A stretch of DNA of 29,900 nt from Candidatus Liptonbacteria bacterium RIFOXYD1_FULL_36_11 (GTDB lineage: Bacteria > Patescibacteriota > Minisyncoccia > UBA6257 > XYB1-36-10), in the NCBI GenBank assembly GCA_001821375.1, contig MHLG01000017.1, positions 1-29,900 on the forward strand. Direction: 5' to 3'. Under the pieces are notes generated by a model, which was not told the origin of the DNA, ran no database searches, and was given only the letters and a program-made list of their open reading frames with translations. The stretch's first letter is position 1. The number at the start of each line of letters is the position of its first letter. The position numbers and the translations under genes were made by a program. Positions 17,017 through 20,673 of the stretch are shown here, piece by piece.

Positions 17017-17044
17017 AAAAAACCCGCCTAAACAGCGGGTTTTA
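17017..17044. terminator. Bidirectional terminator overlapping the last ftsH codons
   Basis: AAAACCCGC-ctaaaca-GCGGGTTTT; ftsH TAG lies in the loop. Confidence 0.75.
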
Positions 17045-20000
17045 TTTTGCTAAAAATTTTATCTTTAGCAATATTTGTGTTTATCTTTATCCCGAATTTT
17101 TTTACTATTTCATAAAACTCATCCTGCTCTAAAATCTCTTTTTCTAAAAGCGTTTCCGCTACTTTATCTAAAGCCTTTCTTTTTTCTTTCATAATTTTCA
17201 TTGCCTTATTTAAAGCGTCGTTTATTAACATTGCTACTTCGCTGTCTATATTTTTTGCCACTTCTTCCGAATAATGCTTTCCCGTCATAATCTCTCTTCC
17301 TAAAAATATTGACTCGTCTCCATCTCCAACCGCTACCGGCCCCATTTTTTCACCCATTCCATATCTTGTCACCAAACTTCTTGCTAAATCATAAGCAACC
17401 CTCAGATCATTTGATGCTCCGGTTGTCACATCTTTAAAAACTGTTTTTTCGGCTGCGTATCCTCCCATCATCATTACAAGATCGGCTAAAAACTGTGCCC
17501 GGCTTTTTAATCTTCTGTCTTCTAGTGGAAGTTTCAAGGTGTATCCTCCCGCCATGCCGCGTGAAACTATGGAAATTTTATGCACCGGATCCGCCTCCGG
17601 CAAAACCGCCGCTCCGAGCGCATGCCCCGCTTCATGATAAGCTATTATTTTTCTTTCCTTGTCTGTTATTGTTAAGCTTCTTCTTTCCGGCCCTAAAATT
17701 ACCTTTTCCACTGAATCAAAAATATTTTGCAAAGTTATCTCTTTCTGTCCGTTTATTGCCGCGAGTATTGCCGCCTCATTCATTAAATTTGCCAGATCTG
17801 CCCCGGAAAAACCCGGCGTTCGCACTGCCACTTTTCTTAAATCAATACTATTTGCGAGTTTTTTATCCTTGGCGTGTATTTTTAATATTTCCTCTCTTTC
17901 ATTTATATCTGGCAAATCTAAAATTATCCGTCGGTCAAATCTTCCCGGTCGGAGGAGCGCTGGATCTAAGACATCGGGTCTGTTTGTAGCCGCGAGTATT
18001 ATTACTCTTGTGTTTCCTTCAAACCCGTCCATCTCTACCAGTATCTGATTTAAAGTCTGCTCTCTTTCGTCGTGTCCGCCACCAAGTCCCGCTCCTCTTT
18101 GCCTTCCTACCGCGTCTATTTCATCAATAAACAAAATAGAAGGAGCTGCTTTCTTTGCTATATCAAACGCATCGCGCGTGCGGCTGGCTCCTACTCCAAC
18201 AAACATTTCTACAAACTCCGAAGCGGACATATAAAAAAACGGCACCCCGGCTTCTCCTGCTACTGCTCGGGCGATTAGCGTATTATGGCTGACTATTCCA
18301 TTCGCTGTAAAAGAATGATTTTCTGGCACAGTGAAGTCGTAAACTTTTTCTTTCCCCTCGCTAATAGCCATTACTGGAGAAAAAAACAAATTTGCAGCTA
18401 ACAGCGACTTTAAATACTCCCCGGCTTTTGAATAAACTCCGCTTTTTTCATATTCTCCTACTAAAAACTTTAAGGAATTTCTTGAAATGCGTCCTCTCGT
18501 CTTAATTTTATTCATTATCTTTGATAATTTTTCTGTGCTTTTTCTAGCAGATTGTATATCTTGAAAACACCTTCCCATTGTATTGTTTGCATAAGGCAGC
18601 ACATCTACATTAGTGTTTCCCGTATTATGAGTAGATAAATAATTTTCCATTTTTTCTTGTTTTCTTTTAAGTCGAAAACCAATTTGATTAACAAACGGAA
18701 CTAAAGAAGTTCCAGAAACAAAAATCTCATAAACCGGATTCTTATGTTTTTTATCATTCCCGCTTTTTATTCTTCTTCCTGGCACTATCCCCATATTTAA
18801 AAGTAATGCTATCACCTGATTTGAAAGCGTCTTACTGACCGTGGCATATCCAAAAGTATATCGCTCAAAATATCCATCCGTGTCAAATAATCCCTGTAAA
18901 AAAGCCACCACCACTTCTTTTGGCGCCATCATAATAGAAGGAGGGATTGTCTTATCATAAGACAAAAGATAAGACATTCCTGAATAATACAAATCTTTTT
19001 TTACTTTCCAAGATGAAACCACGCTTGTTATTCCATCGCTTCCCATCCTCAAAGACACTTCCGGATATTGTTCAGAAATATACGAAGCAAAACAATATCT
19101 CAACTCTTCGTCAGTGGTCGTAAAACCAACTCTGTTTGAATGGCTTAAATTTCCGTCTCCTGTTAAAAGTCCCATTATATACGCTTCCTCTACACTTACT
19201 TCTCTTAAATTCCCAAACTGCTTATTATTAAATTTCACTGCTACTAAATCTCCCTCCTTTAAATCAGAAAGTTTTTTCCACTTTAAACAGCCATCTTTTT
19301 CCATCACTGCTATCGGATGCTCTGGCGTTCCTTCAAGCTCCATACCCTGCTTGAGAAAAATTTTCACCGTTTGTTGTTCTCCTAAATCATACCAATGGGA
19401 AGCCTTGCTCTCTTTAGCTTGGGCAGTCTTAAGGTTTATTGACAACACTGAAGCTCCTTCTACCTCTCCCGTTTCCTGATTTACAAAAAAATACTTTGGC
19501 ACATCCTTAATCGGTATTACCCCTTTGTTTGTTGTTACCAATGTTTCTCCCGTTACGCATTTCCCTGTCCCCGGTGATCCTACTAATAAAACCCCTCTCG
19601 GAATTTTTGCTCCTAAATCTGTAAACTTTTTTGGATTTTTTAAAAAATCCACTACTTCCTTAAGTTCTTGTTTTGCTTCCTTTAATCCTGCCACATCCCC
19701 AAAAGTCGTCTTATTTTTTTGCTGGTTGAATGATTTTAAATTTGATTGCCCGAAAGAAAAAGCTTGGTTCATCCCACTCTTCGCGTTCCGAAACATCAGC
19801 CAAAAAATTACCGCTATGGCAATAATCGGCAACATCGTCGGAATTAAAATACTTGCCCAAAAACTAAACCCGCTTTCTTCTTTAATCTCAAAAATCACCT
19901 CCTTTAATTTTTCCTGTGGCACCCCGTAATTTTTTAATGTTTCACTTAGTCCTGCTTCCGTTTCCTTCTTTGACCAGTATTCCTTACCGTCTCGCATTAC

Positions 20001-20183
20001 TATTTTTAAATCATTTCCGCTTACAGAAACACTTTTTACTTCTTCGGTCGTTATCCTTTCCGCTAGTTGATCAAGAGTAATAATCTCTTTTTTTCCCAAC
20101 ATATCCGTCGTTCCTGAAAAAGTTAAAGCCAAAAGCAAAAAAACAGCGAACGCCCACGCCAAATTTTTCAAAAGTAATTTCAT
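17028..20183 (-). CDS. ftsH: ATP-dependent zinc metalloprotease FtsH containing an intein (about 625 aa after splicing)
   Basis: 2 TM segments, TFGDVAG, GSPGTGK|intein|[27 protein letters not shown] motif, HEAGH zinc site. Confidence 0.97.
18282..19559 (-). mobile_element. 426-aa intein with LAGLIDADG homing endonuclease
   Basis: Cys1 (CVTGETLV), block B TPEH, GLLTGDG and GLFDTDG, block F VYDFTV, terminal SHN, Thr+1. Confidence 0.96.
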
Positions 20184-20223: not shown

Positions 20224-20507
20224 TACCACGTGAAATAAAAATCTTTAGATTTTTAATTTGCAAAGCAAATTATTTCGCTAAAATTACCCAGCCTGCCGTA
20301 GACACAGCCGGAATCCAGTCCCGCTATCCACTTTTAACTTTATTCACCCTGTGAAATAAGATTTATTTTTAGTTATCTAACAAAATAAATTTTAATTTCA
20401 TCGGATGAAATTTATTTCACTAGGGTAAACTTTATTCACCCTGTGTAGTATAGTAACTACTACACGGGGTAAACTTTTCTGTCATTCCGGCGCAGGCCGG
20501 AATCCAG
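20224..20507. repeat. Mosaic of Y-shaped family D elements, a family C fragment and family A repeats
   Basis: 20224-20289 is homologous to 29163-29227; 20340-20429 three-way fold; 20431-20472 hairpin; GTCATTCCGGCGCAGGCCGGAATCCAG at 20481-20507. Confidence 0.75.
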
Positions 20508-20673
20508 CTCTTCCCTTACTTTTAATTGTTTTCTATTTGTATGATTCGCATGCATTCGTATATTAGTATCACTTTTTACTTTTAACCGTTAGATAACTTG
20601 CTTTTTTCCTTATTTTCTGCTTTAATATAAAAAGCTTTTTTAAAATAAAAACCTTAGAAAGGTGGTGGTAAAA

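Follow-up and report, generated by a model that had tools for sequence, protein, structure and literature searches.

The sole ftsH gene of Candidatus Liptonbacteria bacterium RIFOXYD1_FULL_36_11 very probably carries, in its Walker A loop, a genuine class 1 intein with a LAGLIDADG homing endonuclease, i.e., a selfish mobile element. The gene lies in the 29,900-nt stretch of contig MHLG01000017.1 that was analysed (hereafter the window), where ORF calling identifies it as a single minus-strand reading frame encoding a precursor of 1051 aa (Table 1). Translation assigns 426 of these residues, 209-634, to the intein, which begins with CVTGETLV, ends with NGIVSHN and is directly preceded by GSPGTGK; the insertion point in the FtsH Walker A motif is GSPGTGK^T, the caret marking the position of the insert. 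The initial annotation had proposed a full-length homing-endonuclease intein at this GTGK^T junction, and its coordinates, length and junction prove exact by translation, Pfam and NCBIfam.

Profile searches separate the precursor into intein and exteins. Pfam recognizes Intein_splicing (PF14890, E 2e-20), LAGLIDADG_3 (PF14528, E 8e-17) and also PF05204 in the intein, and AAA (PF00004), AAA_lid_3 (PF17862) and Peptidase_M41 (PF01434) in the exteins. The NCBIfam models of the N-terminal (TIGR01445) and C-terminal (TIGR01443) intein splicing regions both score above cut-off on the precursor, and the FtsH equivalog TIGR01241 reaches 742 bits for the whole protein against a cut-off of 600. The features of an FtsH are all found, namely an AAA+ module, an M41 protease with HExxH (HEAGH) and two N-terminal hydrophobic segments, with the C-extein running in order through the pore loop MFVG, Walker B DEID, sensor-1 ATN, the AAA lid and the protease domain. 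Excision of the intein leaves a 625-aa FtsH collinear with intein-free homologues, the size that had been predicted at approximately 625 aa, and across the spliced junction GSPGTGK and the next 12 residues are the same as in an intein-free FtsH of the same family, which is uninterrupted there. The spliced (empty-site) DNA of the window's ftsH, computed as ...GGGACAGGGAAA^ACGCTAATC..., matches exactly the intein-free site given earlier and is the candidate target of the endonuclease.

Table 1. Features of the ftsH precursor gene and its intein in the window.
Feature	Position in the window	Strand	Basis
ftsH precursor ORF including the intein, 1051 aa	17028..20183 (stop codon included)	-	TIGR01241, 742 bits; sole M41 gene found
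N-extein, residues 1-208: two transmembrane segments, FtsH extracellular region, AAA+ start to GSPGTGK	19560..20183	-	collinear with homologues
Intein, class 1, residues 209-634, Cys1...His-Asn followed by Thr+1	18282..19559	-	profiles, conservation, model
N-terminal splicing (HINT) region, intein 1-110; block A Cys1; block B G77-T78-P-E-H81-P82	19230..19559	-	TIGR01445 (residues 1-84); invariant residues; beta-strand-rich model
LAGLIDADG homing-endonuclease domain and helical C-terminal extension, intein ~120-390	18390..19202	-	PF14528, PF05204; Foldseek
LAGLIDADG motif 1, intein 127-136, catalytic Asp135	19152..19181	-	Y127, G130, G134, D135 invariant
LAGLIDADG motif 2, intein 219-229, catalytic Asp228	18873..18905	-	F220, G223, F225, D226, D228 invariant
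C-terminal splicing region, intein 391-426; block F D408, H415; block G NGIVSHN (H425, N426)	18282..18389	-	TIGR01443; V406, D408, T410, H415, F417, H425, N426 invariant
C-extein, residues 635-1051, Thr+1 = Walker A Thr first	17028..18281	-	AAA 635-756, AAA_lid_3, Peptidase_M41 838-1026

The catalytic apparatus of both activities is intact. Inteins were cut from 119 homologous FtsH proteins and aligned, and conservation was read from 60 sequences of 33-60% identity. Cys1 and HN^T are each present in 119 of the 119 FtsH inteins aligned, HN^T having also been read in all 108 inteins parsed for the C-terminal junction, and the +1 residue is always Thr. In the 60-sequence alignment, Cys1 of block A and G77-T78-x-E80-H81-P82 of block B are invariant, as are the block F and block G residues listed in Table 1, bearing out the earlier statement that Cys1, TxxH, HN and Thr+1 are intact and extending it to the aligned relatives. 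The same holds for the two acidic residues of the LAGLIDADG motifs, Asp135 in GLLTGD135G and Asp228 in GLFDTD228G, both invariant in the 60 sequences. In an AlphaFold2 model of the intein predicted from this alignment (pLDDT 91.4, pTM 0.92), residues 1-110 and 391-426 come together as a beta-rich splicing domain, and between them lie an alpha/beta endonuclease core and a helical extension; residues 123-292 of the model display the pseudo-dimeric alpha-beta-beta-alpha-beta-beta-alpha secondary structure of LAGLIDADG endonucleases. Foldseek searches against the PDB retrieve PI-PfuI (1dq3, E 1.4e-25), TliVMA (7qss, TM 0.70), PI-PkoII and PI-SceI and, for the nuclease core, the free-standing I-DmoI (TMt ~0.7); PI-PfuI is also the best PDB match by sequence (E 1.9e-11). 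Collectively, these features make the window's element a bifunctional class 1 intein of standard type, its endonuclease being of the double-motif LAGLIDADG kind.

Constitutive class 1 splicing would be the best-supported mode of action. Following established intein chemistry, from which we infer the steps below, Cys1 (FtsH C209) would attack the Lys208-Cys209 bond in an N-S acyl shift aided by Thr78 and His81 of block B, and the N-extein would be passed to Thr+1 (T635) by transesterification. Cyclisation of Asn426, aided by His425, would then release the intein, and an O-N shift would generate a normal Lys-Thr bond, rebuilding GSPGTGKT in an active FtsH of 625 aa. Once released, or still within the precursor, the intein would serve as a monomeric double-motif LAGLIDADG nuclease (Asp135, Asp228) predicted to cleave ftsH alleles that lack the intein at their conserved P-loop DNA, and repair from an intein-bearing allele would copy the intein into the cut ftsH, i.e., homing.

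The host genome comprises 598,867 bp in 30 contigs and is 94% complete; the names carried by its closest proteins put it within Patescibacteria/CPR. A genome-wide profile search returned one intein-profile match and one Peptidase_M41 match, both of which are this ftsH gene; because it is the sole FtsH in a reduced 0.6-Mb genome, the precursor presumably must splice efficiently. As the genome is a 30-contig metagenome assembly, the insert might in principle be an assembly or binning artefact or the mark of a chimeric contig, but the probability of this is close to nil. The ftsH DNA of the window was detected in groundwater metagenomes, where an identical 6.3-kb contig of one run spans both intein junctions; a ~98%-identical strain, represented by a variant contig in a groundwater run of a different sample and study, likewise contains the intein, its frame open and both junctions included. 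Moreover, the reading frame runs through without a break, both junctions are exact, and the same architecture recurs in more than 100 independent assemblies.

A separate observation concerns the DNA upstream of ftsH. At positions 20448-20588 of the window, the summed contig depth reaches 44x in one of the four groundwater runs and 224-1451x in the other three, against roughly 2-10x for the neighbouring DNA. Within 20224-20603, contigs are joined in various ways, some skipping 153, 201 or 378 nt and some stepping back by 37 nt. This region seems to be a short repeat common to many genomes or copies, with a length that varies between strains.

The distribution of the intein among relatives is sporadic. 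Same-family and same-order genomes, 40 in all, gave ~35 FtsH matches, none of which has the intein; their flanks abut and the ORFs measure ~605-650 aa. Of 400 further genomes sampled evenly across the phylum, one contains the intein (E <= 1e-30), in an FtsH with the GK^C...HN^T arrangement and at 39% identity. These data bear on the suggestion of the initial annotation that splicing could gate FtsH. Spelled out, this would make the intein a co-opted post-translational switch whose redox-, metal- or temperature-conditional splicing controls the protease. Such a role would fit an insertion that, lying in Walker A, must presumably inactivate the ATPase of the precursor, and that sits in the only FtsH of the genome; conditional splicing is, in addition, documented for the Pho RadA and mycobacterial DnaB inteins (PMC4513877, PMC6195587). 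However, the intein is absent from every same-family or same-order FtsH examined and from 399 of the 400 other phylum genomes, arguing that no lineage-level function depends on it, and its distribution is that of a selfish element. The non-catalytic cysteines C91, C156 and C331 are not conserved in the alignment, so that Cys1 has no conserved disulfide partner. Neither a conserved cysteine suited to trapping Cys1 nor retention across the lineage, by which a conditionally splicing intein would be recognized, was found; the gating proposal thus gains no support, and we consider such a switch highly improbable.

Two loci of the same order were recorded alongside this survey. One FtsH ORF of 819 aa (G013:C3:73263-74261) is longer by ~200 residues, placed between query positions ~530 and ~517-551 and close to the post-pore-loop site described below; this stretch may be a mini-intein. 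The other (G010:C22:1773-2930) yields an intein-like match of 26% identity in a frame of 936 aa whose only stops are 11 in-frame TGA codons; TGA may be read as sense on this contig, the contig may be foreign to the bin, or the gene may be decayed.

Sequence comparisons and trees give evidence of horizontal movement. Intein-free FtsH proteins of the same family share 74-79% identity with the window's extein, whose core is 63-70% identical to the best intein-bearing FtsH; for 113 homologues that carry an intein, the similarity of the intein to the window's copy does not correlate with that of the extein (Spearman -0.07, computed on identities). The comparison of ftsH and intein phylogenies that the initial annotation had called for reveals conflicting trees. 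The intein tree splits into two deep, well-supported clades (clade I with 82 rows and clade II with 37) and places the window's intein in clade I, with P0003 and P0004 as its sisters; on the extein tree, the window's FtsH joins two intein-free family members with a support of 100, and the hosts of P0003 and P0004 are more distant FtsH lineages. When the clade I and clade II labels are placed on the extein tree, 22-24 switches are counted, 19-20 of them forced by strongly supported branches. Given the sporadic distribution, the uncorrelated identities and the tree conflict, the family has moved repeatedly between FtsH lineages, and the empty sites in relatives together with the extein placement imply that the window's lineage gained its intein after the split from the sampled relatives. 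This pattern is the footprint that a homing, horizontally moving element would be expected to leave. The idea that the intein may still be mobile stands for the intein family, through its sporadic distribution and the intein/extein tree conflict, and the support applies at that family level.

The time of arrival was approached through divergence and base composition. The nearest intein relatives are 60-61% identical to the window's copy, and GC content is 36.2% in the intein (GC3 30.5%), 35.2% in the window and 37-42% in the exteins. Foreign base composition as a signal of recent arrival was rejected, the intein having 36.2% GC against 35.2% for the window. Since the nearest intein is 61% identical and the GC of the intein equals that of the genome, the invasion appears not to be recent, so that the nuclease of the window's copy could have decayed at non-catalytic positions. 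Splicing might accordingly be kept with an inactive homing endonuclease, leaving the intein as a stranded passenger that is inherited only vertically and is retained because its deletion, unless precise, would ruin the essential Walker A motif. This would agree with the absence of any intein copy of more than 61% identity elsewhere in the protein-cluster search and the intein tree, with a base composition fully ameliorated to the genome, and with the SNPs listed for the ~98%-identical sister strain, 4 of 10 being non-synonymous in the intein (6 synonymous) versus 2 of 12 in the exteins (10 synonymous); in so small a sample, this SNP pattern could be no more than a hint of purifying selection. 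Yet the family keeps both LAGLIDADG motifs and both catalytic aspartates intact and without variation, the model gives the endonuclease domain high confidence, and the family has clearly moved between FtsH lineages. Degenerate endonucleases, moreover, usually shrink, yet 102 of the 108 parsed FtsH inteins fall into the 420-439-aa length bin. An inactive nuclease in the window's copy therefore appears unlikely to us, and a selfish intein that retains its homing endonuclease remains the preferred reading.

In the contigs of the four groundwater runs, which drop rare variants, no intein-free allele joining 18281 to 19560 was seen; the joints that were found have sides shorter than 30 nt and derive from conserved ftsH of other organisms. 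A gene-word share of 0.55-0.59 in three groundwater runs (the extein share is 0.595) was considered as a sign of an intein-free allele and was rejected, the value being attributed to fragmentary, low-coverage contigs.

The window's intein is a member of a very large, well-populated family, with hundreds of FtsH copies in public databases. The best 120 clusters of a word-indexed protein search are all intein-bearing FtsH with the insertion between extein residues 208 and 209, and Walker A FtsH inteins make up at least 119 protein clusters at 90% identity. A scan of one genome per GTDB species detected 405 intein relatives; among the best 80 of them, 34 occupy the FtsH Walker A site, so that at least 34 species genomes contain this intein, including Woesebacteria, Paceibacteria and two complete Pyrinomonadaceae (Acidobacteriota) chromosomes. 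The remaining loci of the best 80 are GK^C inteins in PhoH (15), MutS (19), DnaB (3) and other ATPases, with host identities confirmed by Pfam for one example each. In a library of 1.84 billion representatives, 389 intein relatives are found at E <= 1e-30 and 8653 at E <= 1e-3.

Several individual loci add detail. Full-length relatives of 26-37% identity (L051, L044, L071, L084 and similar) lie in the Walker A motif, as GK^C...HN^T or HN^S, of PhoH, MutS, DnaB and a SpoIIIAA/R3H-type ATPase; in the DnaB example, a further intein lies at DLRESG^C. A 4.27-Mb Pyrinomonadaceae chromosome (L018, OZ244585.1, 871-4104) encodes an FtsH Walker A intein that is 53% identical to the window's and closer to it than many CPR copies, which points to a putative cross-phylum transfer. 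Some FtsH proteins with a Walker A intein, 1460-1540 aa in length (P0004, P0018, P0019, P0040, P0041, P0044 and others), contain a second intein of ~450 aa (Ser1...HN), of which the window's FtsH has no counterpart. Of the 119 proteins, 17 have the second intein behind the pore loop (EMFVGVGA^S) and 4 have it in sensor-1 (ILAA^TN); the pore-loop and sensor-1 inteins are alike (SVTGDTP...P(I/V)LLHN), which suggests that they may represent one family at two FtsH sites. A far-reaching interpretation would make FtsH a major uncatalogued intein host outside the replication/repair network, with three sites (Walker A; post-pore-loop GVGA^S; sensor-1 AA^TN), and would further have P-loop intein splicing in single-FtsH ultra-small CPR bacteria be rate-limiting or stress-responsive, tuning membrane-protein quality control; taken as a whole, we find this quite improbable.

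Inteins are usually described as concentrated in proteins of replication, repair and nucleotide metabolism, and FtsH, a membrane quality-control protease, extends the list of hosts. Together with PhoH, MutS and DnaB, it provides a further example of the P-loop GK^T or GK^S attracting one broad LAGLIDADG intein family. For annotation, the intein explains entries of 1000-1500 aa named "FtsH" or "AAA family ATPase" in CPR genomes, and for tool-building it offers a mesophilic Cys1/Thr+1 intein along with a candidate endonuclease with a defined target. The element itself is an ordinary selfish element in a newly noted host; its chemistry and life cycle are textbook, and no concept is changed.

A full-text literature search found no paper describing an FtsH intein, a result that means not found rather than proven absent; in the papers naming both FtsH and intein, the inteins belong to PolB or RPB2, and FtsH is a separate product of the same genomes. 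Novikova et al. 2016 (PMC4760082) list LonB, RFC, MCM, DnaB and others as intein hosts in their main tables, from which FtsH is absent. The placement of FtsH outside the classical intein hosts by the initial annotation fits the searchable literature. The novelty of the find was to fall if many FtsH inteins had been described; none was found in papers, but the element is common in public sequence, as the clusters and species genomes counted above show.

Compared with known systems, the other FtsH Walker A inteins share with the window's copy the GK^C...HN^T junction, a length of ~420-440 aa and the same blocks and LAGLIDADG motifs, at 33-61% identity. Their carriers are mostly Patescibacteria MAGs (Paceibacteria, Kuenen-, Campbell-, Davies-, Ames-, Levy-, Blackburn-, Woese-, Kerfeld- and Peregrinibacteria), plus Pyrinomonadaceae (Acidobacteriota) chromosomes; the window's copy is distinguished by a family and order that are otherwise empty-site in all sampled members. 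PI-PfuI, the Pyrococcus furiosus RNR intein (1dq3), and TliVMA (7qss) resemble it in combining HINT and double-LAGLIDADG modules with an extra helical region of DNA-binding type, but they are archaeal and hyperthermophilic, reside in RNR and V-ATPase, and have only ~20% sequence identity to the window's intein. The P-loop is the commonest RFC-S intein site according to Novikova et al. 2016 (PMC4760082), and the NCBIfam RFC model aligns over the P-loop flank and the intein start of the window's FtsH; RFC inteins as its specific closest kin were rejected, the NCBIfam scores being 103 bits for DnaB, 91 for GyrA and 82 for RFC. In common with the P-loop Lys^Thr or Lys^Ser inteins of the archaeal RFC small subunit (site a), DnaB, PhoH and MutS, the window's intein is inserted after the Walker A Lys and uses the following Thr or Ser as the +1 nucleophile; whereas the P-loop inteins elsewhere have hosts in replication, repair or recombination, the host in the window is a membrane AAA+ protease.
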